A DNA stretch of 64,000 nt from an uncultured Pseudomonadota bacterium. Lineage in GTDB: Bacteria > Pseudomonadota > Alphaproteobacteria > UBA9219. Of this stretch, positions 1,037-56,910 are shown piece by piece. The notes under the pieces were generated by a model, which saw only the letters and a program-made list of their open reading frames with translations, did not search any database and was not told the origin of the DNA. Each line of letters begins with the position of its first letter. Within the stretch, counting starts at the first letter, position 1. The stretch lies in NCBI GenBank assembly GCA_903824505.1, contig CAIJXG010000045.1, forward strand, positions 756 to 64,755, in the 5' to 3' direction. Made by a program: the position numbers and the translations under genes.

Positions 1037-1894
1037 TTAAAAAAGCACGGGTTGAAATTTTCTGTCCTGATGCTCAATCACCTCAGTGACCGCGCGCTTG
1101 ACGGATAGCTTGGTTCCACTGCTGCTTTGTGAGATTCTTACCCTCACGCGGAGAATATCCCCTTTACCAAAGCGCTCTCCCTCCTCGATGCGTTGAAGAA
1201 AAGCCTGATCCTCAAGAACTGCACTGAACGAAGTCGATCCATCTGAAAAACGCCACTGATTTCCGTCTTTGAAAACAGCCGACTCGATCACTAAAGACAT
1301 TTCTGCTGCAAATTCCGACACGGGTTTTTCGATATCAATTGGCCTAAAATAGGCCGACTCGTCTCGTTTGGCGGAAACAAGTTCTTCGGTTATATCCCCA
1401 TCAGAGAGGCCGATACTGACTTCTTCGATTCCTTCTGTGTGAAGGGCGGCGCCAACAAAACGAGAAACGGCGTCCGATCCTTTGTCAGAAAGAACAAGAG
1501 TAAGTGCGGACGTCTGTACTTGTATAATCTGTCCATCATTATTCGTGACAGAGACCATGGGGCCAAGAGACTGAATATCCTTCGGCGGTCCACCACGCAG
1601 GAATTTCCAAAGTTTGAAGGCTTCTTTCACACACTCGAAAAGATTTTTTGGAATGTCGCTCGAAAAAAGAGTCGCAAGAGGCCCACCAACCGTAACCCAT
1701 ATATCCGTTAAGAAAGATCCTTTGCCATATCCGGCAACTTCCGCGCGTGCTTCGGCTTCATTTCCGTATGTCGCCTTAACGGCGGCGACCATAAACTCGG
1801 AAAACGCAATCATATTCGAGGAAGCCGTGTACACATCCATGCGCCCCTGATCGACAGCGGGCCCACCGTAGCGGAGTTGTAACCGCGTTTGCAT
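1037..1894 (-). CDS. Hypothetical protein (285 aa), co-oriented with the downstream gene across a 90-bp gap.
   Basis: Long ORF with plausible composition. No motif I recognise. Sits in a lower-GC segment. Confidence 0.55.
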   Translation of the reverse strand: MQTRLQLRYGGPAVDQGRMDVYTASSNMIAFSEFMVAAVKATYGNEAEARAEVAGYGKGSFLTDIWVTVGGPLATLFSSDIPKNLFECVKEAFKLWKFLRGGPPKDIQSLGPMVSVTNNDGQIIQVQTSALTLVLSDKGSDAVSRFVGAALHTEGIEEVSIGLSDGDITEELVSAKRDESAYFRPIDIEKPVSEFAAEMSLVIESAVFKDGNQWRFSDGSTSFSAVLEDQAFLQRIEEGERFGKGDILRVRVRISQSSSGTKLSVKRAVTEVIEHQDRKFQPVLF

Positions 1895-3543: not shown

Positions 3544-5424
3544 TTAACCGCATTCAGCGGTGGCCACACCGCCGCCTATTGAGATGCCTGCTTTCATTTT
3601 GGAGGGGGGCTTCTCCGGACAAGACGGCTGTTCCGTAGGATAAGAATCAATGCCTAGATGAGCCAAAACTTCCTCAGAAGACCAAGAAGGGGTTCTCCTG
3701 CATTTTATCTGGAACGCTTCGGCCGCCTCTATCGCGTCATAGAGACCTATATCTCTGGCAAACTCCGAAGGGGTGCGCCTATCATCGGAAGATTGAAAGA
3801 AAGAGATCGTGGCTTTTCTTTCAAATAATCTGGTTGCTAAATCCCTAATCGAAGATTCGCCTCCGTCCTTCCTGTAAAAATCAAAAGAGTTCCATAAATC
3901 AAGGAAAACCGCAATTTCTGTTAAGCCATTTGTTTCGATGTCCGAGCAAGTGAGGATGCTTCTTTGATTAAACAGCCCCTCTCTCTGATCCACTCCGTAA
4001 TCGTAGAGGTTTTCAGAATCGACTGTTCTCAGATGATCTATCGCGTCTTGCTTCGCTTCTGGCTTTAGGTCATTCAAGAAACCAATAAATGCCGCAGGAT
4101 CCAGAAATCCTAAAGTTTCTACAACAGAAACAGGGATGTCGTAATCAGGGTCTGAGGGTCTATAATGGGCGATGCTTTCCCATATTTCTAAGTAAGCCGC
4201 ACAAAGTTGCCCTGCTTCTTTATCTCCAGCTTTCGAGCCCCTTATCTCTTGAAAGCGATTAAAGGCCTCAAGAACCCGCGCCTCTTCTTTTTTTACCCGC
4301 GCCTCTTCTCGTGTTGTTTTTAAATTTTGGACCAAGCATTTGCCATCAGGACTTTGATCAAGCAAAAGAAGAAAATCTGCCTCCCTTATAGCCTTTATAA
4401 GCGTGGGATCTTTTCCAAATGGCATATGGGTCGAGAGGGTTTCATCCGATACCGTCAAGCCTCCAGCAGGCAATTCACGAAGAGCATCGTCATGGTACAA
4501 ACTAAGGTGACCATAAGTTGGATCAAGCGCATGGGCTTTAAACAGGGCTTGGAAGAATTCTTGAGGAATATCCCCTTGCTTAATTTTTTCCTCAAGATCG
4601 GGGATTGTCGATGCTGCGTCCAGAAGTTTTCTTATAGGAGGTGGAGCGACAAGATCCCATCGTTTCCCATACGATTTCAAATACTCAGGCTGTCCATTTA
4701 AATAGGCAATATAACCAGAAATATACTGCAAAGTCCACGAATGGGCTTCATCAAGTGCATGATACAGCATAAGGTCTTGACGGGACGACCCCAGAATAGG
4801 CGCTCCTGTTAGCTGAAGAAGCTGATGTCCCCATTCATGCACCATAGTCATAGGTTCTTGAAAACTGCCTTCTACTTGGCAACAGGTCCCATTATAAGCA
4901 CGGTCATAGGTGCCTGTGAAACGGCTTCCACTGCTAGGACAGACAATAAAAGCCGGAAAAGGCCCCATCCCGTGTTTGTTTAGGACCTCGGACAAACGAA
5001 GATCATACCCAATGCCTTTCATGAGGCCTATGGCTTGAATGATGGTTTTTCTAACTCTTTCCGTGTGTACGAGATCCTCTGTCTGCCCGGGCCAAGACCA
5101 TATTTTGAGGTCAATAGGTTTCTGCTTATAGGGATCATAGCCCAGAAGGAAAATGGCCTGATCACCATCTTTTCTGGCAATCTGTTCCCGAATGTATTTT
5201 AACCCTGCAAAGACATTGCTTTCTGGGACTGTCAAAGATGTTTCTTTCACAACAACATCAGAATGGCGCCCCCATTGAAACTGCTTAACTGCACGAATAG
5301 CGGTGTTTAAAAGAGAGCGTTTTTGCACGGTGATGTAGGGATGTCTCCCCCATTGAAATTGATTAAGTGCCCGAATGGCCGCGTTTAAAAAGGCTGGGTC
5401 TGTTTCAGTCATCAAAAAGTCCAA
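3544..5424 (-). CDS. Zinc-metalloprotease-like protein (HExxH...E) with two tandem 25-aa N-terminal repeats. Candidate secreted or effector protein.
   Basis: Motif HEWGHQLL followed by ...LYHALDEAHSW, which is gluzincin-like. The N-terminus has LNAAIRALNQFQWGRHPYITVQKRS / LNTAIRAVKQFQWGRHSDVVVKETS, encoded by a ~75-bp tandem DNA repeat at about 5271-5400. The segment is AT-rich. Confidence 0.6.
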   Translation of the reverse strand: MDFLMTETDPAFLNAAIRALNQFQWGRHPYITVQKRSLLNTAIRAVKQFQWGRHSDVVVKETSLTVPESNVFAGLKYIREQIARKDGDQAIFLLGYDPYKQKPIDLKIWSWPGQTEDLVHTERVRKTIIQAIGLMKGIGYDLRLSEVLNKHGMGPFPAFIVCPSSGSRFTGTYDRAYNGTCCQVEGSFQEPMTMVHEWGHQLLQLTGAPILGSSRQDLMLYHALDEAHSWTLQYISGYIAYLNGQPEYLKSYGKRWDLVAPPPIRKLLDAASTIPDLEEKIKQGDIPQEFFQALFKAHALDPTYGHLSLYHDDALRELPAGGLTVSDETLSTHMPFGKDPTLIKAIREADFLLLLDQSPDGKCLVQNLKTTREEARVKKEEARVLEAFNRFQEIRGSKAGDKEAGQLCAAYLEIWESIAHYRPSDPDYDIPVSVVETLGFLDPAAFIGFLNDLKPEAKQDAIDHLRTVDSENLYDYGVDQREGLFNQRSILTCSDIETNGLTEIAVFLDLWNSFDFYRKDGGESSIRDLATRLFERKATISFFQSSDDRRTPSEFARDIGLYDAIEAAEAFQIKCRRTPSWSSEEVLAHLGIDSYPTEQPSCPEKPPSKMKAGISIGGGVATAECG

Positions 5425-11996: not shown

Positions 11997-12072
11997 TGGC
12001 AGGAGTGGAGGGTCTCGAACCCCCAGCCTTCGGTTTTGGAGACCGACGCTCTACCAATTGAGCTACACTCCT
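11997..12072 (-). tRNA. tRNA-Trp (anticodon CCA)
   Basis: Reverse complement aggagtgtagctcaattggtagagcgtcggtctCCAaaaccgaaggctgggggttcgagaccctccactcctgcca; 7-bp acceptor stem, T-loop gttcgag, CCA end encoded. Confidence 0.9.
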
Positions 12073-12385: not shown

Positions 12386-14212
12386 ATGGAGTATAGACGT
12401 GAGATTGATGGGCTGCGCGCGCTGGCGGTCGTCCCCGTCCTTTTATTTCACGCGGGGTTTAAAACCCTAAGCGGGGGTTTTGTAGGCGTGGACATTTTCT
12501 TTGTCATCAGCGGCTATCTGATTACAAGCATTCTGTTAGCCGATCTTGAGCAGGGGCGTTTCTCAATCGGCAGATTTTATGAAAGACGCGCGCGCCGCAT
12601 TCTGCCTGCCCTTTATCTGGTCATGCTCGTTTGCCTGCCCTTCGCCTATGCATGGATGATGCCCGATGAATTTAAGAATTTTGGGCAGTCTCTTTCGGCA
12701 ACGGCCCTCTTTTCCAACAATCTGCTTCTTTCCCTTACCAGCGGCTATTGGGAGCTCGCCAGCGCCTTCAAACCCCTTCTTCATACATGGAGTCTGGGCG
12801 TTGAGGAGCAATATTACCTTCTTTTTCCCTTTGTGATGCTTCTTATCCTTTGGTTTTTTGGCCCCTTCTATCTGCAGCATTCTCGCAAGGGAAAACTCTT
12901 CGCTGTTCTTGGCTTTTTCATGATCTTAAGCCTCATGGTCTCGGGTCAATTTATTCACAAAAAACCCGATCTTGTTTTTTATATTCTTCCGACACGCGCT
13001 TGGGAGATTTTATCAGGCGCCTTAGCCGCTGTGTTTCTTTTCAAAAAGTCCTGTCCTGTTCATCGGGTCGTTGTGAATCAATACGCCAGTCTTGGGGGTC
13101 TCGCGCTGATCTGTCTTTCTATTTTTCTTTTCGATGCGCGCTATCCCTCGCCGGGATACGACACGCTTATCCCCGTTCTGGGCACCCTTCTTGTGATTCT
13201 TTTTGCTGGGCCTAGGACGCAGGCCGCGCGGTTTCTGGGGTCTCCGTTCATGGTTTCCACGGGCTTGATGAGCTACAGCCTCTATCTCTGGCATCAGCCC
13301 CTTTTGTCCTTTGCGCGCGTTTATTGCGTCACGCCGCCGACCCCTCTTTTTTGCGCCGCGCTCCTTTTGCTCAGCGTCCCTTTGGCCTATCTGTCTTGGC
13401 GCTTTGTCGAAACGCCGTTTCGTGATGGGCGGAGGATCAAGACGAAGACTTTTGTGATCCTTGCCGTGTGTTTTTCTCTCTTCTTTGTCAGCGCAGGACT
13501 CTATCTCAACAAAAGTTATGGCATGCCCACGCGCATGGATGATCCCAGCTTAACGAGTCAGGATCTTGATAAGCGCCTTTATAATGAGAGAGTTTTTGCC
13601 CTGAAACGCGATGCCTTTTCCTCTGATCCAACGCTCAAGCTGTTGGTCATTGGCGATAGCTTCGGCAGAGACTTCGTGAATATGACGCGTGAGACCTTTG
13701 ACACCACACGGCTTGAAATTATTTATCGCGATGATCTGTCCGATTGCATATACCCTTATAAAAGCCCTTTAGAAGAACGTCTTTTTGACTCGGCGCAGGT
13801 GATTGTTTTTGCAAGCGGCTTCCAAGAAGCCTGTCTTGCGCCGGATATTGCATGGGCCACCCATCGAGGAAAGGATATTTTTTATGTCGGCCTTAAACAA
13901 TTCGGATACAATCTGAACTGGTTGATCCGCTTGGATCCGGCCCTGCGGAAGAACCAATATAATCCTTTGTTGGCAGATACGATCAAGCAGGAGGCCTATA
14001 GGACGCGGACGATTCCCCCCGCCCATTTCATCTCTCTTCTAGGGCCGATTACCCGCAACAACGCCATTCCCGTAACCGATGAGGCCGGGCATATTCTAAG
14101 CATGGATCGGATGCATGTGACAAAATACGGCGCTCAATTTTTGGGCGCGCGCGCTCTTTTGCCTAGCCTTTATGGCAAGACTCTGTTGAAATATATTCAG
14201 GATCAGCCTTAA
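12386..14212 (+). CDS. OafA/YrhL-type acyltransferase-3 family protein with C-terminal SGNH-like domain (O-acetyltransferase)
   Basis: EIDGLRALAVVPVLLFHAGF...GVDIFFVISGYLIT...RRILPALY is the acyltransferase-3 signature. It has multiple TM segments and a ~250-aa C-terminal soluble domain; 608 aa. Confidence 0.85.
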   Translation: MEYRREIDGLRALAVVPVLLFHAGFKTLSGGFVGVDIFFVISGYLITSILLADLEQGRFSIGRFYERRARRILPALYLVMLVCLPFAYAWMMPDEFKNFGQSLSATALFSNNLLLSLTSGYWELASAFKPLLHTWSLGVEEQYYLLFPFVMLLILWFFGPFYLQHSRKGKLFAVLGFFMILSLMVSGQFIHKKPDLVFYILPTRAWEILSGALAAVFLFKKSCPVHRVVVNQYASLGGLALICLSIFLFDARYPSPGYDTLIPVLGTLLVILFAGPRTQAARFLGSPFMVSTGLMSYSLYLWHQPLLSFARVYCVTPPTPLFCAALLLLSVPLAYLSWRFVETPFRDGRRIKTKTFVILAVCFSLFFVSAGLYLNKSYGMPTRMDDPSLTSQDLDKRLYNERVFALKRDAFSSDPTLKLLVIGDSFGRDFVNMTRETFDTTRLEIIYRDDLSDCIYPYKSPLEERLFDSAQVIVFASGFQEACLAPDIAWATHRGKDIFYVGLKQFGYNLNWLIRLDPALRKNQYNPLLADTIKQEAYRTRTIPPAHFISLLGPITRNNAIPVTDEAGHILSMDRMHVTKYGAQFLGARALLPSLYGKTLLKYIQDQP

Positions 14213-14408
14213 TATCGACGGTTTCTTTTTGTCTCCTTTGTTCTTGTTGTTTCCTGTCGTTGCGCCCTCGTTGGCCGAGGGAAAGCCGCGCGGCTCCCGT
14301 CTTCTTCCGGAAAGCCTCTTCACAGAAAACCACCTGAGGATCTGGGCCTGTCAAGCTTCCAGCCTCCTGGGTAGTGGGTCAGTTTGAATCTTAACTGAGA
14401 GGCGATAA

Positions 14409-15545
14409 TTAACCTTTGTCTAAAAGAAACAAAAACTCTCTATTCTGCTCTTGTGCGTCACGAAGCCATTCATTAGTCCAGGTCATTCCTGCCATCACAT
14501 TGCGCTTATAGTCTAGCTCGATAACCTCGATAAGCTCCCCTGCATCCCTCATGGCTTCATTTAGTTCTCTAGCTGTTGCCCTTCCACCAGAACTGTATGA
14601 TAGAATTATATATTGGGTTGGGGTGTCCTTGATAAGTTTGTGGATTGCTTCGACAGCTATAAAGTTGCCATCATCATTACGGCGAAACTCTTCAAATATA
14701 GAAGCCGCCACATCATCTCTAGTATCGACTCGTCGATTTACCTTGCCAAAAACTTCGGGTTTGTCGTTCAGGCAAACCGTCGTCCATACATGGTAATAGG
14801 CCGAATAGCGAACGCGAGATGGGGGCATTTTTTCATTATTAGAACCATACGGTGGGTCATAGTAAGCTAGATCGGCCTTAATGCCCAGTGCAATATCAAA
14901 TACATCGCCATTGGTGACTTCATGCACATCCTCACAATCAATAATGTCAGGAACCTGTAGGCGCATGTGTTTAAATGAGCGGGGTGACCAGTCCCGCAGA
15001 TATGAAGAAAAATGCCCTAGCGTGCTGTCAACTTGATCAAGTGCCATCATAAGACTGGTCAAGGCGACAGCTTTTTCGTTAACATCGAGTCCAAGACGAT
15101 CTATTTCTTCCCGTATTCCATCAAGTTTTCGCGTGTTATGAATTTGCCACGGCATTTTTATCGGATTTTCCATGTCAATCGAGGAAGGGTCGCCGCCATA
15201 GTGTTGTGTGAACCACCCATCTCGAGGCTTACATGCGTTCAAATCATCAATGAGTTTCTGATATTTAGTTTTTGAACCTGCCTTTAAATAACAACGCCCT
15301 AATACCTCTGACCAGACAGCGCGGTCATTACAAATTACCTTGTACCCATATCGGGCGAGTGCCTGCGAAACTCTGGTAGAACCAGCGAAGCCATCGAAGA
15401 TAACTTTCGCATCAGTTTTTCCTGCCAACCATAAAATCTGGGGCAGCAATTTTAGTTTTGATCCAGCATACTTGATGCCCTCCGTAGGTGGGGGCACGGG
15501 GTAGCTTGTAGTAAAAAGCTCTTTTTGTAGAGCCAGATGATTCAT
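14409..15545 (-). CDS. Dam-family (D12 class) N6-adenine DNA methyltransferase
   Basis: N-terminal IKYAGSKLKLLPQILWL (Dam-like xxAGGK motif), FDGFAGSTRV (AdoMet motif I) and DPPYG catalytic motif IV; 378 aa. Confidence 0.8.
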   Translation of the reverse strand: MNHLALQKELFTTSYPVPPPTEGIKYAGSKLKLLPQILWLAGKTDAKVIFDGFAGSTRVSQALARYGYKVICNDRAVWSEVLGRCYLKAGSKTKYQKLIDDLNACKPRDGWFTQHYGGDPSSIDMENPIKMPWQIHNTRKLDGIREEIDRLGLDVNEKAVALTSLMMALDQVDSTLGHFSSYLRDWSPRSFKHMRLQVPDIIDCEDVHEVTNGDVFDIALGIKADLAYYDPPYGSNNEKMPPSRVRYSAYYHVWTTVCLNDKPEVFGKVNRRVDTRDDVAASIFEEFRRNDDGNFIAVEAIHKLIKDTPTQYIILSYSSGGRATARELNEAMRDAGELIEVIELDYKRNVMAGMTWTNEWLRDAQEQNREFLFLLDKG

Positions 15546-16420
15546 AATTGGTTGCTTTCTTTTAACTGCTGAATATCTTTTTTAATTTCAATGAGTGCCC
15601 TGTCATGTCCGGCACTTGATGAAACAAGAGCATGAGAAAACAACTGCACCAGTATCTTGTTGTGGGAATAATCGACCCATCCACTAGTGATGCTGTCGAA
15701 ATGCTTTAATGCGTTGCGAGTATGTGTCCATAAGCCACGTTGTAGGGCGTTTGCTGCGGCATCCCCATATCTAACTTCGCAAATATAATCATTGTTACTA
15801 TCATAGAATCGAAAAACAGGATGCTTTCTTCCGCTGCCTTCATGGGCACGCTCTATCTTTGCTGTCTGGGTACGAGCCGCTTCATAATCGAAAACCAAAA
15901 TGTTACATCTTTGTTTTTTCTCATCGTATATGAGAGGCAATACATTAATCTGCAAGAACACAGCAAACGCAGGGTCAGAAAAAATTGCATCAATTCTCTC
16001 GCGTCCCTCGATGATGTGATCAATCTCTTTCATCAATCTGGGATACATCAACGTATTTTTATCGGTTGATAATTGAAGGGGGCCGTCACCATACGCCTTT
16101 AAGCTAACTGGAAATTGGGCTTTAGTGATTTCGTTGGTAATAGTGATGTCTTCTTCTCTCGACTTTGCTCGATATAAGTCTTTGCCCACATGGAGTGACT
16201 TAAAGTCATACATGTATTGGTTGATAAATTCAGCTATTGCAATCTCAGCCAAATCACCATGAGTTTTATTTCCTATGAGGCGCATCGTGAAAATGTTGCT
16301 CAGTGTCGTTGTTATTAATGCAGGATGTTTGCTTATAAACAGCTTCAACCTGTTGGTAAAATCTTTATACGGGTTTTGATCGGTCATTGTTGATCTGTTT
16401 CGTGTGATGTTAAACGGCAT
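15542..16420 (-). CDS. Putative type II restriction endonuclease (cognate partner of the Dam-family methyltransferase)
   Basis: 292-aa ORF whose stop overlaps the MTase start by 4 nt. No MTase motifs. Possible PD-(D/E)xK-like region (...SDPAF...IYDEKK...). The call rests on context. Confidence 0.45.
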   Translation of the reverse strand: MPFNITRNRSTMTDQNPYKDFTNRLKLFISKHPALITTTLSNIFTMRLIGNKTHGDLAEIAIAEFINQYMYDFKSLHVGKDLYRAKSREEDITITNEITKAQFPVSLKAYGDGPLQLSTDKNTLMYPRLMKEIDHIIEGRERIDAIFSDPAFAVFLQINVLPLIYDEKKQRCNILVFDYEAARTQTAKIERAHEGSGRKHPVFRFYDSNNDYICEVRYGDAAANALQRGLWTHTRNALKHFDSITSGWVDYSHNKILVQLFSHALVSSSAGHDRALIEIKKDIQQLKESNQL

Positions 16421-16423
16421 TTT

Positions 16424-17269
16424 TCAGCCAACCATTTTGTTAGCCTCCCACTCATCAGTGATTCGCACAATATCTTCGATAGAGAATAGCGTTTCACTCA
16501 CACCCGCCGCTATTGCAGGGCTTACCCGCAAAGTCTGGTGAATACGCACAAAATTATAGTGCATGAAGTAAATCGCCAGCGCGTAGTAATGGTTTTCAAT
16601 CTTTTTTGAAAACGCATTGGTTAGGCGCGTAAAGCGGCGGTTGCCCATACGGATATTTAGGTTCTGGCGTTCAACATAGCTTGTCGAAACGTGTTTTCCG
16701 TCGGGATTGCCTCTTATTACCTCCTTGCGAGAAGCAACGTATTCCGCAGGGCTATAACGCTTCTCGCCAGAAAAATCTGCGCCGTATATTTTTACAAGTT
16801 GGGCAAAATCAATATCATTCCCGAAAGCACCCTCTACAGCTTCAACATAAGCTTTCAAGCCGTCGCTGGTAAGCTGGACACGATTTGCAAGACGGCTTGC
16901 CAGATCGGATATAAACGCCTTGGCGCATTCGCCGTCGCGTCCACCAAGATAGAATGAAGGAACAAGTTTGGTATCGGCATCAATCGCTGTCCATGTCCAA
17001 ACATCACCAGCTTCGCCAAGCTTTTCCTCTGGCACATTCTTGGCCTTCGCATAAACGAAAGACCAAATTTCATCGACCTGTAAACGCCTGCATGACAGAT
17101 TACGAAAGGCCCCATCCTGATAATCAGCGCAGGCCTTCCCTGCATCAACCAGAAGCTTTGCAATCGTATTTTTGCTTGCTCCGGTTAAGCGGCTGATAGA
17201 ACGAATAGACATACCCTCAACCATCATGCCGAGGATTTGTGCGCGTTGTGTGGTGGAAAGCTTATTCAT
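16424..17269 (-). CDS. DDE transposase (IS1/IS1595-like)
   Basis: N-terminal HTH (QRAQILGMMVEGMSIRSISRLTGASKNTIAKLL), then LQVDEIWSFVYAK...WTWTAIDADTKLV...LTSDGLKAY, typical of IS1/IS1595-type DDE cores. Its stop is 3 nt before the REase start codon. Confidence 0.7.
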   Translation of the reverse strand: MNKLSTTQRAQILGMMVEGMSIRSISRLTGASKNTIAKLLVDAGKACADYQDGAFRNLSCRRLQVDEIWSFVYAKAKNVPEEKLGEAGDVWTWTAIDADTKLVPSFYLGGRDGECAKAFISDLASRLANRVQLTSDGLKAYVEAVEGAFGNDIDFAQLVKIYGADFSGEKRYSPAEYVASRKEVIRGNPDGKHVSTSYVERQNLNIRMGNRRFTRLTNAFSKKIENHYYALAIYFMHYNFVRIHQTLRVSPAIAAGVSETLFSIEDIVRITDEWEANKMVG

Positions 17270-17371
17270 AATGACTCTTATACTTGAGAATGATTATTTT
17301 GTCAATAAGCAAAAGTAGAATAATTGCTATTTTTCCTTTGACTCTTGGTTATTGATTGGGGCATAAGCAAT

Positions 17372-17402
17372 GAACGGTTCAGAAGATGTTTCTGAACCGT
17401 TC
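17372..17402. promoter_or_regulatory. Perfect 13-bp stem / 5-nt loop hairpin in the divergent region between the transposase and HTH genes
   Basis: gaacggttcagaa-gatgt-ttctgaaccgttc. It lies upstream of both divergent genes, so it is not a terminator for either. It may be an operator or an element end. Confidence 0.4.
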
Positions 17403-17565
17403 CAAAACCTAGGGGGTTTTATGTACTTGCTTAGAGAGATATAGTCCTAACCCACGACGCCATGATGCTTTGACCGGCCTTGAGCGTTTAGTGGTACGGA
17501 CGAGAACGGGTTGAAAGACCCGCCCCTTTGTAGGGACATATAAACATATATTGACGGTGTAAGCA

Positions 17566-17988
17566 ATGAAAAACATCCAATCGCCCGTGGGCGAACGTGG
17601 CTTCTCTCTGCTTGATTTAAAAGCAAAAGAAGTAGAGTTAGAGGACGCATTAAAACAAGTAAAAGATGCTATCCAAGTATTTGATAAATTGGAAAAAAGC
17701 GGTATTTTTCCGAAGTATGGCATTGTGGCAGAAACGCCATTATTCGAGCCATTGTATAAACAAGGTGAGTTTGCAGATTTAAGCGTATATGAAGGGGCTG
17801 TTTCACTTCTAATGCAGAAAAAACAATCACTTACAACAGATGAAATTGTTGACGGTCTTATTAATGGGGGCAAAAAAATAGGTGATAATGCTCGCGTAAT
17901 AGTGGCAACTACACTTTATAAGTCGGTAAAAAAGAAGAAAAATTGCAAGATAGCGGTGGCGGGTACCGGAAAGTGGAAACTAGCTTAG
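17566..17988 (+). CDS. Small HTH-like protein (HARE-HTH-like winged helix?)
   Basis: SLTTDEIVDGLINGGKKIGDNARVIVATTLYKSVKKK resembles HARE-type winged-helix segments; 140 aa; AT-rich. Confidence 0.45.
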   Translation: MKNIQSPVGERGFSLLDLKAKEVELEDALKQVKDAIQVFDKLEKSGIFPKYGIVAETPLFEPLYKQGEFADLSVYEGAVSLLMQKKQSLTTDEIVDGLINGGKKIGDNARVIVATTLYKSVKKKKNCKIAVAGTGKWKLA

Positions 17989-50261: not shown

Positions 50262-50300
50262 GGGAAACACGGCTCATTCCTGCCGTGTTCCCTTTCTTTT
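50262..50300. terminator. Probable bidirectional terminator hairpin between convergent bpt and nusA
   Basis: gggaaacacggc-tcattcct-gccgtgttccc followed by tttcttttacg. Overlaps the nusA stop. Confidence 0.6.
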
Positions 50301-51789
50301 ACGCTGACACCTCATCGTTAAACCAATGCGCCCGCGCGGCCATGATGATGCCGTTGGCTTGCGATTCCGTCAGAGCGTCTTCGCCTACGATTTCGCGCAG
50401 CTCATCACCTGCCAGATCGGCCACATCGTCCAGAGATTTCACGCCCTTTTCGCCCAGCTTCACGGCCATTTCGATACTCAGACCCGCCAGCGCAACAACG
50501 GCATCCGACACGCCGAATTCCTTGCGTTGAGCTTCCAGACGCGCCGCGTTTTCGGCCAGCCAGTTACGGGCGCGCTCTTGCAGCTCGCCCGCCACTTCGA
50601 CATCGAACCCTTCGATTTCGGCCAGTTCGTCCACGGGGGTTTCCGCGATTTGCTCGACTTTCGTAAAGCCTTCCGCGACCAAGAGATGCGCGATGACATC
50701 GTCAACGGACAGAGCTTCCGTAAAGAGCGCCGTTCGCATCGCTGATTCCTGTTGGCGACGTTCGGATTCTTCCTTTTCGGTCAGAATGTCGATGTCCCAG
50801 CCTGTGAGCATCGCGGCAAGCCGCACATTCTGCCCGCGGCGGCCAATGGCCAGCGAAAGCTGCTCATCCGGTACGACAACATCCATGCGGTTGTTTTCGT
50901 CGTCCAAAACGACTTTGGCGACTTCGGCCGGCGCAAGAGCGTTGACAACAAAGGTCGCGGGATCGGGCGACCAAGGAATAATGTCGATCTTTTCGCCCTG
51001 CAATTCACCGACGACCGCTTGAACGCGGCTGCCACGCATACCGACGCACGCGCCGATCGGATCAATGCTGCTGTCGTTCGAGACAACCGCCAGTTTCGCG
51101 CGGCTGCCCGGATCGCGGGCGACGGATTTGATTTCGATGACTCCGTCGTAGATCTCCGGCACTTCTTGCGTGAAGAGCTTGGCCATGAACAAAGGATGGG
51201 TGCGAGACAAGAAAATTTGTGGCCCACGTTGTTCTTCGCGCACATCATAGATGTAAGCGCGTACGCGATCGCCCGTTTTCAGATGCTCGCGCGGCAGGCT
51301 TTCATCCCGCTTAATGACGGCTTCGGTGCGGCCCAAATCAATCGTGACATTCCCGTATTCGACGCGCTTGACGACGCCGCTGATGATCTCGCCCACGCGG
51401 TCTTTGTATTCTTCATATTGACGGTGACGTTCAGCCTCGCGCACTTTTTGCACGATCACTTGCTTGGCCGTTTGCGCCGCGATGCGGCCCATTTCGATGG
51501 GGGGCAAATCATCCACGATAAAATCGCCCAATTCGGCATCCGGCTTCGTCTTACGCGCCGCTTTGACACTGAGTTGCGTCAATTCATTCTCGATCGGATC
51601 AGCCACTTGCAGCCAGCGCTGCAGAATGATCTCGCCCGTCCTGCGGTCCACAAAAGCGCGGATATCATGCTCGTGCCCATATTTGGCGCGGCCAGCCTTC
51701 TGCATCGCTTGTTCCATTGCGACCAGAATTTCTTCTTTGTCGATGCCCTTTTCTCGGGCGGCCATCTCGGCGGCTTGCAAAAGTTCCAT
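50299..51789 (-). CDS. nusA: Transcription termination/antitermination factor NusA
   Basis: [22 protein letters not shown]..., S1 and KH domains, C-terminal acidic repeats; 496 aa. Confidence 0.95.
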
Positions 51790-51818
51790 GTCGGTGTCCT
51801 TTCTTCTTTCTGTGTGCC

Positions 51819-52256
51819 TTATTTGTAGAGTGAGAATTTTCTGGTCAAGGAGCTTAAAAGCTCCGCATCGCCAAAAAAGACAGCTCCGTAAAACTCAAGC
51901 GCCTCATGCGGCGTTTCTTTCGTACGAGCCAGCTGTTCCTGATAAGTGCCGACGGTCATGGTGTTTACAAAATCAACCGTCAGGATGTTTGCTTGTTTCG
52001 CCGCCTCCATCGCTTCCCGAATCTTCGTCGGTCTGCCTTTAAGCACGATGAAAGGATAGGCTGAAATAGACGGGTGGTGCGTGCCTGAGGCATCTTCATA
52101 ATCGCACATCAACCCGTCTTGAGGCCCCAAAAGCGTTCCCATCCCCAAAGCCATATGTGCCAGCGTGTTCACAGCCGTGCCCGCCTCAACCTTTTCGTTG
52201 AGAACCGCGACCAGTTTTTTGGTCATGGCGACCGGAGGATCCTTGAGCGTGATCAC
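51819..52256 (-). CDS. DUF2000-family protein
   Basis: 145-aa ORF between rimP and nusA; composition and size are consistent with DUF2000. Low-certainty family call. Confidence 0.45.
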   Translation of the reverse strand: MITLKDPPVAMTKKLVAVLNEKVEAGTAVNTLAHMALGMGTLLGPQDGLMCDYEDASGTHHPSISAYPFIVLKGRPTKIREAMEAAKQANILTVDFVNTMTVGTYQEQLARTKETPHEALEFYGAVFFGDAELLSSLTRKFSLYK

Positions 52257-52753
52257 TTTTTGCTCTCCCTCAGCGCTTCCTTCATCAAGGCATCTGTCAG
52301 CACCAGTTTAGCCTGTTCGATCTCTTGAAAAGGCACGGAAATCAGGCCCTTATCTGTTTCAAATACAAGGGTCTCTTCCGATGCACACGCAATCTTTCCC
52401 TGAAAGCGTCTGACGCCGTCCATGGGGGCCTTAAGGTCAATTTTGGCGACATGCCCCTGAAACCGGATGTAATCTTTGAGCCGTGTCAGGGGGCGGTCGA
52501 TTCCGGGCGAGCTAACCTCAAGGTCATATTTTCCGGCAAAATCTGGTTCAACCTCAAGCCGTGCCGAGACCAAAGAACTCACCCGCGCACAATCCTCGAC
52601 CTTGATGCCACACCCATCCACGCGCTCCACCATGATTTGAAGCGCCGCGTATTTCCCGTTGCCGCTCAGATGCACGCGCACAAGCTCGTAGCCGGCGTTT
52701 GCGACATCTTCCGCAATCAAGGAAGCTACCTTTGTTGGTACCGCTTTCGACAT
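52253..52753 (-). CDS. rimP: Ribosome maturation factor RimP
   Basis: VANAGYELVRVHLSG...LEVSSPGIDRPL; start trimmed to the ATG at 52753. Confidence 0.88.
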   Translation of the reverse strand: MSKAVPTKVASLIAEDVANAGYELVRVHLSGNGKYAALQIMVERVDGCGIKVEDCARVSSLVSARLEVEPDFAGKYDLEVSSPGIDRPLTRLKDYIRFQGHVAKIDLKAPMDGVRRFQGKIACASEETLVFETDKGLISVPFQEIEQAKLVLTDALMKEALRESKK

Positions 52754-52887
52754 CACTCTATCCCAAAAAGGGTGAGCCAATAAAAAAGGCGGGCTCTCGC
52801 CCACCTCCTCACTTCTTTTCCTCTGACACCCCCTTTATTCCCGATCTCCTTGATGAAATCAAGTTTTTTGTTTAGGTGGGCCCCATA

Positions 52888-52930
52888 TATACTCGGGCAC
52901 CGAAGGAACCCCTTAAGTTTCATCGGCGGC
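52888..52930. repeat. MITE-like repeat family A, partial copy
   Basis: tatactcgggcaccgaaggaaccccttaagtttcatcggcggcaa. Confidence 0.75.
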
Positions 52931-52971
52931 AAGGGTGGACAAGATTTCTGTTCATGATATAGGGGGATAGG

Positions 52972-53574
52972 ATGAAAAAGATAACGCAAGCGCATCGCCC
53001 ACAGGGCAAAAAACGGGTAGAGGCAGGGGATCGCCTCTGCCTCGTCACGCGCGAAACCCTTCCACACACGGCTCTGATCCGCTTTGTCATTGGGCCGGAT
53101 CAAAGCGTTGTGCCTGATCTTGGGGAAAATCTGCCCGGCCACGGGCTTTGGGTATCCGCAAGCCGCCCCTCTATCCAAACCGCTGTCCAGAAAAATCTTT
53201 TTGCTAAAGCCACCAAGGAGCAGGCGCGAGCCGATCCCGATCTGGCGGATCATATCGCGGCCTTATTGCGTAAACGCTGCCTGTCCCTTCTGGGTCTGGC
53301 CAAAGGCGCAGGTCTTGCGGTTCTGGGCGAATCACAAACGGAAAGCGCGTTGCGTGAGGGGAAACTTGCGCTTTTTCTGCACGCGCCGGATGCCATGCAT
53401 CCTCTTGATAATCGTCGCGAGATTCCGGCCTTTGCTCTTTTCTCGCGTGAGGAAATGGGCGCCGCCTTCGGCTATGAGCAAATCGTCTATGCGGGGCTTA
53501 TGCCTCATCGGCTGACACAAAAGCTGCAAGATGAAATCGGGCGATTAATCCGCCTAGTGCCCTGCGTCACCTAA
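52972..53574 (+). CDS. YlxR (DUF448) / L7Ae-like fusion protein
   Basis: RLCLVTRETLPHTALIRFVIGPD...PGHGLWVSA (YlxR) followed by LLGLAKGAGLAVLGESQTESALREGKLALFLHAPD (L7Ae-like). This is usually encoded between nusA and infB; here it is divergent from rimP. Confidence 0.8.
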   Translation: MKKITQAHRPQGKKRVEAGDRLCLVTRETLPHTALIRFVIGPDQSVVPDLGENLPGHGLWVSASRPSIQTAVQKNLFAKATKEQARADPDLADHIAALLRKRCLSLLGLAKGAGLAVLGESQTESALREGKLALFLHAPDAMHPLDNRREIPAFALFSREEMGAAFGYEQIVYAGLMPHRLTQKLQDEIGRLIRLVPCVT

Positions 53575-53721
53575 AAAGAAAGGAGAGGACGCTGAGATTT
53601 CTTAACGGGACAAAAACGAAAACTGCACGCCTGTATTGGACATACAGGCAAGGTTTTTGATTTTGTCCCGGCGAAAAAGATCAAGTCAAATCCTTTCTTT
53701 TTAGGTGACGCAGAGCACTAG
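53561..53721. repeat. Nested palindromic element family B, second copy
   Basis: cctgcgtcacctaaaaagaaaggagaggacgctgagatttc...cctgtattggacatacagg...ttaggtgacgcagagcactag. The ylxR-like gene's stop codon lies inside the left arm. Confidence 0.88.
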
Positions 53722-53873
53722 AGGCCTAAAGGAGGATTTTTTCCTCTGCCCCAGCCTTAAAAGGAGTGTTCTTCCAATTTTTATCTTTTCTTAACCATCT
53801 CTTAGGTCTTTCTTCATACAGATTTGTTTAAATAGCAGTTGAAAAGACGTGTTTCCTTCCTGTCTGCGGTCTT

Positions 53874-56864
53874 ATGTCAAACCTTCTGGATCAAACTCTT
53901 GCCGCCTTGATGATGGCGTTGCGCCAACCGGTTGAATCCTTCATTCAACTTGAAACGGCGGACGATAAAACGACTCTTGTCGCCAATGACGGGTCTTTAG
54001 TGACTTTTGTCAAAATTTTCGGCGCGCGGCAAATCATTGGCGATGCGGAATATCAATGGATCTTGGATCAAGCCACGCTAAAGCTAGGGGCGCGGTTCGA
54101 CCGCCCGGGTTATGCGATGCAGGTCTATTTTATGCGGGATCCCGGGCTTGCCGATCATGACATCGAACAGGTGATGAAAGGCAACCGCGCCGCCATGCGC
54201 GCAACCGATCTGGACCTGACCGATCTGCTCAACGAACGTCGCCGCAATCTGGCGCACTATATCGCGCATGAGGAAATTTATTTCGTTTTGTGGACGCGCC
54301 CTTCGGTTCTTACAAAATCAGAGCTGGCCTCCACCACGAAGCAAATGACAAAAAAGAAATGGGTGGCAGCCCCTAACGCCCAATATCCCTTGCGTGCGCT
54401 GGATGCGTTGCGCACCAAACATAAAGCCTTTGTGTCCTCGATCTCTAGCGCGTTGGAAGAAATCGGTATCAAAGCCGCCGTCTCGACGACGCATGAAGCG
54501 CTGGCCGCCGTGCGCGGCAATATCTATCCCCAAATGGCGAATGATCAGTGGCGGGCGAATCTCCCGGGCGATCCCATGCTGCCGCGCATGCCTTTGCACG
54601 GGAATTACGACGCCTCGGATCTTTTGTGGCCCCCTTTGCGTGAACAACTCAGCGTGGGGGATGCCGCTCTCGTCTCGTCCAATATCGTGCGGATCGGGAC
54701 GATTCTGTGGGGAGGCGTGGATATGACTCTTGCGCCCGCAGAGCCGGCGCCTTTTCCCCAATTGCTTGCGCGTCTGATCGAACAAGATGTCCCTTTCCGC
54801 ATCTCTTTCCTGATCGAAAGCGGGGGCACGCAAGGCACCTCTTTCAAATCTTTCGCGGCGGGGGTTTTGGGCTTTACCAATCAGGTTAATAAGCAAATCC
54901 GCGAATCCCTGATGTCGCTTCAAAAACTGGCCCATAGCGAACCGATCGTTAAACTGCGCGTGTCTTTGGCAACTTGTGCGCCCCAAACCGACCGCAAACT
55001 TTTGGAATCACGGATTAGCATTTTGACCCAAGCCGTCGAAGCGTGGGGCTATTGTCAGGCCTCCTCTGCCGGAGGCGATCCGATGGAAGTGGTCATGTCC
55101 TCGGCCTTAGGGATTGGATGCGGCTCGACCGCGCCGCCCGTCGTCGCGCCTTTCCGCGAAGTTATCAAGCTTTTGCCGTGGCAACGGGCCTCCTCGCCTT
55201 TTCAGGAGGGGGCCGTCATTTTACGTACGCCCGATGGGCGTATTTGGCCCTATCAGTCGGGATCTTCTCTGACATCCCTCTGGTTCGATTTGATTTTTGC
55301 TCAGCCCGGCGCGGGTAAATCCGTCCTGATGAATGCGCTGAATTTAGGCACGATCCTTTCGGCCGGCATGGCGCAGCTTCCCTATGTCGCCATTTTGGAT
55401 ATTGGCCCCTCTTCCTCCGGCCTCATCTCGCTGATCAGGGATGCTTTGCCGCTTGAGCGGCGGCATGAGGCGATGCATTTCAAACTCCGCATGACACCGG
55501 ACTACGCGGTGAATCCCTTCGATACACAGCTTGGCTGCCGCTATCCTTTGCCGGAGGAACGCGCCTATCTGACCGAGCTCCTAACCCTTCTCTGCACGGC
55601 TGCCGGACAAGAACCCTATGATGGCATGGCGCAGCTGGTTGGTCTGTGCATCGATGAAATGTATCGCTGGCGCGACGACAGCGGCGCGAATACGGAACCG
55701 CGCCCTTATCTGGCGCGTGTTGAATCCGATGTCGATGAAGCGTTATCCCGTTACAACATCCATCTGCCAGAAGATCCGTATTGGTGGGATGTCGTCGATG
55801 CCTTGTTTCAACATGGCGCCGTTCATCAAGCGATTCTGGCGCAACGCTATGCGGCCCCGACTTTGGTAGATGCCGTCACCGCCGCGCGTCGGCCGCAGAT
55901 TCGGGCCCTGCTTGAAGGAACGCAAATCGGCTCCTCGGTCGAAACCGTCATTCACGCCTTCGAGCGCATGATCGCTGCCGCCGTGCGCGAATTTCCGATT
56001 TTGGCATCGATTACACGTTTTGATGTTGGTGGGGCGCGCATCGCCGCAATCGATCTTCAGGATGTCTCGCCCCAAGGCGATGCCATTGCCGATCGGCAAA
56101 CGGCCATTATGTATATGCTCGCGCGGCATGCGTTGATCCGCGGGTGGTGGCTGGGGCCCGATATGCTCCGCGCGGTGCCCGAGGCCTATAAAACCTATCA
56201 TCAGGCCCGCATTCAGGACATTCGCGAAACGCCGAAACGCATTTGTTTCGATGAATTTCATCGCACAAGCCGAACAGCGGCCGTCCGCGCGCAAGTCATC
56301 CGCGATGTGCGCGAGGGGCGGAAATGGGGCGTGCAAATTGTCTTGGCCTCGCAGCTGCTCGACGATTTTTCGAAAGACATGGTGGATCTGGCGACAGGCG
56401 TTTGGATCTGCGGCACCGCCGTATCTGACCGCGCGATCAATGAAACGGGCGAGCGTTTTGGCCTTTCAGAAACAGCGAAATGGGTCATGCGGTACCGTCT
56501 GACAGGCCCTAAAGCGTCCGGTGCGCCTGTTCTCCTGCTTCTGTCAACTAACGAAGGGCGCTACGAACAACATCTGGTCAATACGCTTGGCCCTATCGAG
56601 CTTTGGGCCCTGTCAACCTCCGTCGAAGATGTGACGTTGCGCAGTATTCTTTATACCTCCCTCAGCGCACCCATCGCGAGGCAGGTTCTGGCCAAATTTT
56701 TCCCGGGCGGATCGGCACGGCAAGAAGTCCGGCGACGCGTTGTGCTCCGCATTGAAAAAGGAGAAGTCGAATCGGGAGCGACTTCTGTCGTTATTCAAGA
56801 AATGGCCAAGGAGCTGATCTCCAGCGTCTATACAGACCCGTCAAAAAGCATGGCGCGCGGATAA
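53874..56864 (+). CDS. Large orphan VirB4/TraC/IcmB(DotO)-like P-loop ATPase (FtsK-HerA superfamily)
   Basis: 996 aa. N-terminal region LVANDGSLVTFVKIFGARQIIGDAEYQ...GYAMQVYFMRDP resembles VirB4/IcmB N-domains. Walker A FAQPGAGKSVLMNAL (~aa 480) and Walker B ICFDEFHR (~aa 795). No other secretion or conjugation genes in the window. Confidence 0.5.
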   Translation: MSNLLDQTLAALMMALRQPVESFIQLETADDKTTLVANDGSLVTFVKIFGARQIIGDAEYQWILDQATLKLGARFDRPGYAMQVYFMRDPGLADHDIEQVMKGNRAAMRATDLDLTDLLNERRRNLAHYIAHEEIYFVLWTRPSVLTKSELASTTKQMTKKKWVAAPNAQYPLRALDALRTKHKAFVSSISSALEEIGIKAAVSTTHEALAAVRGNIYPQMANDQWRANLPGDPMLPRMPLHGNYDASDLLWPPLREQLSVGDAALVSSNIVRIGTILWGGVDMTLAPAEPAPFPQLLARLIEQDVPFRISFLIESGGTQGTSFKSFAAGVLGFTNQVNKQIRESLMSLQKLAHSEPIVKLRVSLATCAPQTDRKLLESRISILTQAVEAWGYCQASSAGGDPMEVVMSSALGIGCGSTAPPVVAPFREVIKLLPWQRASSPFQEGAVILRTPDGRIWPYQSGSSLTSLWFDLIFAQPGAGKSVLMNALNLGTILSAGMAQLPYVAILDIGPSSSGLISLIRDALPLERRHEAMHFKLRMTPDYAVNPFDTQLGCRYPLPEERAYLTELLTLLCTAAGQEPYDGMAQLVGLCIDEMYRWRDDSGANTEPRPYLARVESDVDEALSRYNIHLPEDPYWWDVVDALFQHGAVHQAILAQRYAAPTLVDAVTAARRPQIRALLEGTQIGSSVETVIHAFERMIAAAVREFPILASITRFDVGGARIAAIDLQDVSPQGDAIADRQTAIMYMLARHALIRGWWLGPDMLRAVPEAYKTYHQARIQDIRETPKRICFDEFHRTSRTAAVRAQVIRDVREGRKWGVQIVLASQLLDDFSKDMVDLATGVWICGTAVSDRAINETGERFGLSETAKWVMRYRLTGPKASGAPVLLLLSTNEGRYEQHLVNTLGPIELWALSTSVEDVTLRSILYTSLSAPIARQVLAKFFPGGSARQEVRRRVVLRIEKGEVESGATSVVIQEMAKELISSVYTDPSKSMARG

Positions 56865-56878
56865 AAAAGCCTTGAAAG

Positions 56879-56910
56879 TATACTCGGCTTTCCAAGGAAA
56901 CCGAGTATAG
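56879..56910. repeat. MITE-like repeat family A, terminal-hairpin fragment
   Basis: tatactcggctttccaaggaaaccgagtata. Confidence 0.8.

Follow-up and report, generated by a model that had tools for sequence, protein, structure and literature searches.

A lone icmB gene in an uncultured alphaproteobacterium, probably part of a chromosomal type IVB secretion system with dispersed genes

Why would a gene for a secretion ATPase stand alone among housekeeping genes? This question is raised by a 64,000-nucleotide stretch of contig CAIJXG010000045.1 from an uncultured alphaproteobacterium (the window), in which a sequence-only reading had noted an open reading frame (ORF) of 996 amino acids at 53874-56864, judged it an IcmB/DotO-like ATPase larger than canonical VirB4, and left open whether it was a scattered remnant of a type IV secretion system (T4SS) in a rearranged genome or an ATPase recruited to another role. 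The frame is present, on the plus strand and with an ATG start, and we refer to the gene as icmB. In our judgment, the protein is likely to be the IcmB/DotO ATPase of a type IVB (Dot/Icm) system that lies on the chromosome, is inherited vertically, and whose partner genes have been dispersed in the subclade to which the window belongs. Of the two earlier proposals, the scattering is borne out by related genomes and the remnant is not, as the gene is under purifying selection and has its own conserved upstream element, while recruitment to another role found no support.

The family was settled by direct comparison, which gave full-length matches to both DotO and TraU. In a tblastn search against plasmids, the DotO of a Xanthomonas citri plasmid matched over 99% of the window protein at 32.5% identity (E = 6e-135) and the IncI1 TraU over 94% at ~27% identity (E = 1e-78); plasmid matches covered 92-99% of the protein, and 3783 plasmid records were matched in all. 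The closest plasmid-borne homologue (43.8% identity) is that of Rhizobium leguminosarum pRlX5 (L066, NZ_CP140867.1, 300769-303762), an unannotated 1.3-Mb replicon on which a DotL homologue lies ~20 kb from the icmB homologue. A large protein collection held 1924 homologues, the best 120 of which are 69-83% identical to the window protein and 970-1001 amino acids long; many of these carry the name IcmB from the Joint Genome Institute (JGI) or NCBI, and their metagenome-assembled genomes (MAGs) are labeled Alphaproteobacteria, Rhodospirillaceae, 'Bdellovibrionales' or Micavibrio. Because the 1403 family representatives found by exhaustive phmmer and clustered at 50% identity are nearly all ~1000 amino acids long (980-1050), a size of 996 amino acids is the norm of the DotO/TraU family. 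The sequence-only reading had correctly placed the protein near IcmB/DotO and above VirB4 in size. The window protein is a full-length DotO/IcmB/TraU-family ATPase and no new type of ATPase, this family being the type IVB sister of VirB4.

Pfam and TIGRFAM alone could not have reached this assignment, because their VirB4, TraC and AAA_10 scores were all below threshold (AAA_10, 11 bits; TIGR00929 VirB4_CagE, 19.4 bits against a cut-off of 643; TIGR02746 TraC-F, 15.9 bits against 567). Membership of VirB4/CagE/TraC (type IVA and F-type) was rejected for this distance from the TIGR00929 and TIGR02746 cut-offs, the kinship being one of fold only. The PDB held nothing relevant by phmmer sequence search or by a profile search with a 44-sequence alignment, and scans of the protein against PHROGs and PADLOC returned only sub-threshold P-loop or VirB4 fragments. 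An anti-phage defense ATPase (HerA, DndH, MADS) was also considered and rejected, with PADLOC matches that were weak or partial (mad8, 4e-6; HerA, 0.03) and no partner genes.

The fold was approached with an AlphaFold (AF2) model built on an 85-sequence alignment of database matches, which reached a predicted local distance difference test (pLDDT) score of 76 and a predicted template modeling (pTM) score of 0.73; a single-sequence model (pLDDT 36) was not used. When the AF2 model was compared with the PDB by Foldseek, the top 14 matches were all TrwK/VirB4 of the R388 T4SS (E = 1e-21 to 7e-13, the next match having E = 0.1), and 13 of the 14 aligned over ~1000 columns with a probability of 1.0. 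As modeled, the protein has the VirB4-type two-domain fold, with an N-terminal domain and a RecA-like C-terminal domain, and nothing in this fold indicates an unrelated P-loop family, an outcome that the sequence-only reading had allowed for. The Walker A motif that it placed around residue 480 was found at 479-483, and the Walker B motif with a following histidine, expected around 795, at 793-796. The sequence PG.GKSVL is kept in 15/15 aligned family members, among them the Xanthomonas DotO and the Rhizobium homologue, with G479, G481, K482, S483 and V484 invariant. An RKWG...ASQ sensor block at residues 816-827, after Walker B, is also invariant, and both Walker motifs and this block are invariant in two further alignments (A1 and A2). 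No 19-residue stretch resembles a transmembrane segment, the Kyte-Doolittle maximum being 1.35.

The isolation of icmB becomes easier to read against 62 related loci, taken from contigs of one genome per species, searched with the Dot/Icm proteins annotated on the Xanthomonas plasmid and compared after clustering of all their ORFs. In a 'Micavibrio-like' clade (57-61% identity to the window protein), icmB is the final gene of a conserved array in the order icmL, icmK, icmE, a coiled-coil membrane protein gene, two to three genes for paralogous small membrane proteins, icmJ and icmB. IcmL, IcmK, IcmE and IcmJ are encoded upstream of icmB in 13-28 of the related loci, and DotM and DotL downstream in others. 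Closer to the window, the basal members of its own clade (69-76% identity; L009, L011, L013, L014, L017, L060) have icmJ on the 5′ side of icmB and/or dotM-x-dotL directly 3′, where DotM is backed by the Pfam family DotM_C (1e-47) and DotL carries TrwB_AAD_bind and TraG-D_C domains. In a neighbor-joining tree, loss of both flanks of icmB is limited to a single derived subclade, which includes the window; at least 14 genomes show this orphan state, all with a full-length icmB. A type IVB system occurs throughout this large clade of uncultured Micavibrio-related Alphaproteobacteria.

Within the orphan subclade, the usual context is PhaR-icmB followed by PrfB, LysS or other housekeeping genes. 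PhaR likewise precedes icmB in the nearest relative found (83% identity), so the YlxR and GT25 neighbors are specific to the window's lineage. Two T2SSE ATPases encoded beside icmB in this relative (L072) were considered as DotB and rejected at only 28-30% identity over partial length. MltA and CoaE lie a few kilobases 3′ of icmB in the Micavibrio-like clade, and both are found within 5 kb in the window with order and orientation changed; because they are still near icmB, the neighborhood would have been scrambled in place, rather than icmB having jumped.

The clustered loci hold further features of their own. In L046 (6877-9134), and at the same place in other clustered loci, two to three paralogous membrane proteins are encoded between the icmE/icmG-like gene and icmJ; no Pfam family matches them, and one in L046 is a 588-amino-acid protein of repeated units with the motif (L/I)KDHVENPxQTP. 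These paralogues may be expanded IcmC/IcmD-like components. The complete icmL...icmB cluster is also carried by MAGs labeled Micavibrio sp. (for example UBA7657, UBA6929 and UBA1664).

Where partner genes have left icmB, some can be followed. On a 321-kb contig (JAMFSS010000009.1), whose IcmB is 80% identical to that of the window, dotL (P0161) occupies 86.1-88.5 kb and icmB occupies 150.5-153.5 kb, both singletons among housekeeping genes and ~62 kb apart; dotL is flanked by LpxI and a SIMPL-domain gene, with SUF, PepN and SecF genes around them, and icmB is flanked by PhaR and LysS. A solitary dotL was found on two further metagenome-derived contigs, one of them with a different upstream gene. 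When the DotL of a basal member (L009) was used as the query, 26 of the 120 matches listed shared their longest-contig size with a listed IcmB match. Two side observations concern the surroundings of this gene. On the solitary-dotL contigs L067, L068 and L070, a SIMPL-domain (DUF541) gene is directly 3′ each time, whereas the upstream gene is LpxI or DivIC; the SIMPL-domain protein may be an unrecognized partner of DotL. On L069 (1-22388), dotL is alone beside phage portal and terminase genes with dotD-dotC-dotB ~8 kb downstream, a layout of intermediate dispersal.

The second unit is icmK-icmE. A search with IcmK led to a protein (P0337) whose pattern of sources matches that of the window protein (NCBI, Logan and ENA, five contigs). 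The pair is present in Logan run ERR4195047, which also holds the exact window IcmB (L064), and in ENA assembly ERZ1426530, of the same accession series as ERZ1426852, which contains the window contig. There, icmK, icmE (TrbI) and a gene for a 391-amino-acid protein form a trio (L071, 258-4395) that is bordered by YceG and ribosomal L10-L12 genes and, at its other end, by a curli-like cluster (curlin repeat, CsgF, CsgG); neither icmL nor icmJ is present there. The tetranucleotide correlation of this contig with the window is 0.927, the highest of all non-overlapping loci. It is likely that the window's organism carries icmK-icmE on another contig. In close relatives dotL, and probably icmK-icmE, are kept as separate units, and we infer that partner genes are present in the window's own genome as well; the type IVB system is probably dispersed yet intact.

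Several results weigh against this reading. No other T4SS gene was recognizable in Pfam maps of the genes called in the 64-kb window, and tblastn with the Xanthomonas plasmid Dot/Icm proteins and those of the related loci found no Dot/Icm partner there; the earlier statement that the ATPase has no secretion-system partners therefore stands for the window, and fails for relatives, which have either the full cluster or dotL, and probably icmK-icmE, elsewhere. Linkage to other dot/icm or tra/trb genes, although usual in the DotO/IcmB/TraU family, does not define it. The three dotL candidates looked up for the window's genome (P0144, P0159, P0183) show the solitary pattern, though all come from other samples. 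The link between icmK-icmE and the window consists of co-occurrence in one sequencing run and of composition, and the correlation of 0.927 is just under the range found within the window (0.94-0.98). At the level of the protein, no curated Pfam or NCBIfam model scored above threshold, and the matches from these two libraries included no DotO/IcmB or TraU model. Finally, the genome paper on the cultured Micavibrio aeruginosavorus ARL-13 reports that secretion systems of types III and IV are lacking (PMC3189940), so not every member of the wider group has a type IVB system, and either the Micavibrio label or the T4SS trait is heterogeneous within it. The sequence-only reading had also raised the possibility of a routine T4SS component duplicated from a full locus elsewhere; this objection applies in part, in that Dot/Icm loci with icmB do exist in related genomes.

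The alternative that survives best is that icmB is a true orphan, the other parts of the type IVB system having disappeared from the genome and the ATPase having been kept for some other membrane machine or for DNA or protein handling. The lack of any partner within 64 kb would fit it, as would the conserved upstream element, which implies independent regulation, and the partners are presumed rather than seen in the exact genome of the window. However, a member of the same subclade keeps dotL on the contig that carries icmB, and the run that contains the exact window protein also contains the icmK-icmE pair. The identities of the N- and C-terminal domains are 0.75/0.85 in isolated lineages and 0.64/0.78 and 0.65/0.80 in clustered lineages; relative to the ATPase domain, the N-terminal domain, which would bind the receptors, shows no loss of constraint in isolated lineages. 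No sequence feature separates the orphan proteins from the clustered ones, and we regard a true orphan as unlikely.

Still less can be said for an integrated I-type (IncI-like) conjugative element, in which the protein would be a TraU for DNA transfer rather than a DotO for effector secretion. The family does include IncI1 TraU, most of the plasmid matches are in conjugative plasmids, and another part of the window has a small island of low GC content that carries an IS1-like gene and a DNA methyltransferase gene. Nevertheless, the Pfam maps of the window show no relaxase, integrase, replication or other transfer gene near icmB, the GC content at icmB (0.57) is equal to that of its flanks, housekeeping genes flank icmB in every genome, and the protein tree fits vertical descent across the group. 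Genes spread over tens of kilobases are also unable to move as one element, and we consider this explanation very improbable.

Decay of icmB towards a pseudogene, as the remnant of a dismantled system, would explain its isolation from its partners, and the broken rimP-nusA/ylxR arrangement adjoining it testifies to heavy rearrangement. Yet the 996-codon frame is intact, the catalytic motifs are all invariant, and none of the at least 14 orphan-state genomes has lost any of the length of icmB. The ratio of nonsynonymous to synonymous substitution rates (dN/dS) against eight genomes of the orphan subclade is 0.07-0.11, with dS between 1.25 and 2.2, so the gene has been under long-standing purifying selection since the orphan state arose, leaving hardly any room for decay.

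A chimeric contig joining an icmB fragment to unrelated housekeeping DNA, by assembly or binning, is the least credible explanation of all: the left junction is less well replicated, because two independent assemblies with identical sequence begin 179-217 nucleotides 5′ of icmB, near the hairpin that follows ylxR, but the right junction shows 0 mismatches over 10,343 bp against an independent ENA assembly (L063), the ylxR-icmB junction is present on a 66,230-bp contig recorded in 2 samples and in a further similar place, composition is uniform across the junction, and many other genomes show the orphan state independently.

With icmB read as the ATPase of a dispersed type IVB system, the question becomes how a gene outside its operon is expressed (Table 1). 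A block just 5′ of icmB aligns across the orphan subclade whatever gene lies upstream and, because it is kept in this way and a terminator-like hairpin after ylxR separates that gene from icmB, icmB appears to have its own promoter region, which travelled with the gene. Allowing two mismatches or fewer, TTAGNNATTTCTTCATA was found in 13 genomes (L001-L006, L008, L010, L016, L022, L056, L061, L072) between -72 and -92 relative to icmB and in one more at -175, out of 24 matches in 2.5 Mb with both strands searched; it is missing from clustered relatives in which icmJ abuts icmB. The block is probably a promoter or operator gained when icmB left the operon. Downstream, an inverted repeat is a possible end of the transcript, and part of its stem was also flagged on the minus strand by the terminator scan.

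Table 1. Features of the icmB locus, in window coordinates
Feature	Position	Strand	Remarks
icmB/dotO coding sequence	53874..56864	+	996 amino acids plus stop, ATG start; VirB4-family ATPase, type IVB (Dot/Icm, I-type)
N-terminal domain (predicted)	53874..55193	+	~residues 1-440; model aligns to TrwK/VirB4 here too
C-terminal RecA-like ATPase domain (predicted)	55194..56861	+	~residues 441-996; invariant motifs, weak AAA_10/HerA/TraC matches, fold match
Walker A / P-loop QPGAGKSV	55302..55325	+	residues 477-484; GAGKS = 479-483
Walker B region RICFDEFH	56238..56261	+	residues 789-796; DEFH = 793-796
Terminator-like hairpin just 3′ of ylxR	53629..53649	both strands	T-runs on both sides; consensus match by terminator scan
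Conserved promoter-proximal block (putative) TTTTCTTAACCATCTCTTAGGTCTTTCTTCATACAGATTTGTTTAAATAGC	53788..53840	+	aligned across orphan-subclade genomes whatever the upstream gene
Core of the block TTAGGTCTTTCTTCATA	53802-53818	+	72 nt 5′ of icmB ATG
Inverted repeat TATACTCGG-N13-CCGAGTATA, candidate transcript end	56879..56909	+	15 nt 3′ of stop; no T-run

Similar elements may precede the other units. A 20-mer, TAAATTAACCAAAAACTAAC, is common to the regions upstream of solitary dotL on three contigs (L067, 9886-10000; L068, 9861-10000; L070, 4114-4279) and was not found in the window. The putative sites 5′ of icmB, icmK and dotL all contain TTAACC-N5-(C)TWRR, that of icmB reading TTAACC-N5-6-(C)ATTAGG...TTTCTTCATA. 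Such a direct-repeat arrangement resembles boxes of the CtrA, PhoB or PmrA type. The window has 8 matches to the canonical CtrA box TTAA-N7-TTAAC where 6.5 are expected, which is no enrichment, and the narrower TTAACC-N5-YTWRV, with 4 matches against 0.37 expected, was defined post hoc; for both reasons, CtrA control can be put forward only as a hypothesis. Tentatively, and as a possibility rather than an expectation, each unit in the subclade may have its own upstream element with putative response-regulator sites, so that the machine, possibly a contact-dependent weapon, would be held together by a regulon. Separately, a perfect TTAA-N7-TTAAC box, TTAACCATTCATTAAC, lies at 1966-1981 on the minus strand of the window, 72-87 nucleotides upstream of an ORF (1037-1894, minus strand) for a 285-amino-acid protein without known domain; the spacing from box to start is like that of the TTAACC motif of icmB.

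A sequence of events can be proposed. The related loci place icmB last in an ancestral icmL-icmK-icmE-...-icmJ-icmB operon, from whose other genes rearrangements in the window's subclade would then have split it. What is left is a putative transcription unit of one gene, which keeps a conserved upstream element of its own, while the partner genes presumably lie alone or in small groups at other places on the chromosome. In Legionella, the N-terminal domain of DotO is responsible for dimerization and for binding the membrane receptors IcmT and DotI/DotJ (PMC11474061), and the protein hydrolyzes ATP, forms a hexamer of dimers and binds DotB (PMC11474061, PMC7029142). By homology, we infer the activity, receptor binding and role in secretion of the window IcmB: its N-terminal domain would dock on inner-membrane Dot/Icm proteins, a hexamer of dimers would sit at the cytoplasmic base of the channel and recruit DotB, and ATP hydrolysis by the C-terminal domain would drive assembly and substrate passage. 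The members of the Micavibrio-related clade that carry this chromosomal and possibly ancient system are possibly predatory or host associated.

The surroundings of icmB agree with a rearranged chromosome. The Pfam-confirmed order is NusA(-), DUF2000(-), RimP(-), YlxR(+), the ATPase, GT25(+), Cmk(-), MltA(+) and Ham1(+), followed by tRNA-His, a CPSase-type ATP-grasp protein(-) and DnaN(-), and the remainder of the window consists by Pfam of housekeeping, cell-envelope and signaling genes with a few domain-less proteins. The neighbors are housekeeping genes, as the sequence-only reading had stated; the YlxR-L7Ae fusion that it described was not confirmed, as a YlxR domain alone was found in the 200-amino-acid protein upstream. 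The order rimP-nusA-ylxR-infB is a widely conserved operon. At 50299-53574, rimP, DUF2000 and nusA are on the minus strand, with DUF2000 between rimP and nusA, and ylxR is on the plus strand without infB 3′ of it; compared with the conserved order, these opposed strands and the gap at infB mean that the operon is broken exactly at the position of icmB.

Two other parts of the window deserve mention. Beside tRNA-Trp (11997-12072), GC content falls to 0.43-0.45, against ~0.55, at ~12386-17900. This stretch, probably a small genomic island at the tRNA, contains genes for an Acyl_transf_3 protein and a D12-class DNA methyltransferase, together with a DDE fragment of IS1-like type and small unknown ORFs. 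At 3544-5424 on the minus strand, a protein of 622-626 amino acids with an HExxH motif (HEWGH) has neither a Pfam domain nor a homologue in the fetched loci; judging by its motif it may be a metalloprotease, and it could be a secreted effector. For the window proteins of 285, 622 and 193 amino acids, no Pfam domain and no homologue beside dot/icm genes in any fetched locus was found.

The window icmB is a new member of a known family, one already auto-annotated as IcmB in public records, and as a routine member of that family it no longer poses the puzzle of an orphan ATPase. Discussion of Dot/Icm-type systems has centered on Legionellales and IncI-type plasmids. Here such a system is conserved on the chromosomes of a broad group of uncultured Alphaproteobacteria, and this group is related to an epibiotic predator for whose type strain the genome paper reports no T4SS. 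Our literature search found no paper describing a Dot/Icm system or type IVB secretion system in Micavibrio, Micavibrionales or predatory bacteria. The lineage ranges naturally from an intact operon to full dispersal of the genes, a series that can help in understanding how a machine of more than 20 components is coordinated without operons, and the conserved upstream elements are concrete, testable candidates for that coordination. If the proposal made above is true, a regulon rather than operons keeps a dispersed Dot/Icm machine together.

Among known systems, Legionella DotO/IcmB is the first point of comparison. The two proteins belong to one family, as judged from transferred names and from full-length homology that is transitive through the Xanthomonas DotO, and have in common a length of ~1000 amino acids, the absence of a transmembrane segment, a VirB4-like two-domain fold (predicted for the window protein) and the Walker A and B motifs. 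Relatives of the window have icmB directly 3′ of icmJ (dotN) and downstream of icmL, icmK and icmE, an order that we take to resemble icm region II of Legionella. Unlike Legionella, the window's host is a Micavibrio-related alphaproteobacterium outside Legionellales, its icmB is apparently monocistronic among housekeeping genes, and dispersal in its subclade exceeds the two-region layout of Legionella. TraU of IncI1 (R64/ColIb-P9 type I conjugation) is likewise of the same length class, with the same motifs and the level of similarity given above, but it belongs to a plasmid DNA-transfer operon with relaxase and pilus, whereas the window icmB is chromosomal and apparently vertical in descent, with no transfer or relaxase genes nearby.

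VirB4/TrwK of R388 (PDB 7O41, 7O43, 8RTD) is the sole structural match, over the full length and with a probability of 1.0, and like DotO it belongs to the hexamer-of-dimers class of ATPases (PMC11474061). The window protein is nonetheless a member of a sister family and not VirB4 proper, because sequence identity is 10-12%, the profile score is 19 bits against 643, the PDB sequence searches were empty and the protein is ~200 residues longer. For the arrangement of the genes, the nearest analogy is rvh (VirB/D4) of Rickettsiales, a functional type IVA system with duplicated components that is split into several chromosomal islets. Both cases have scattered T4SS genes in rearranged alphaproteobacterial genomes, and they differ in that the system discussed here is of type IVB and in that at least icmB and dotL are single-gene units.

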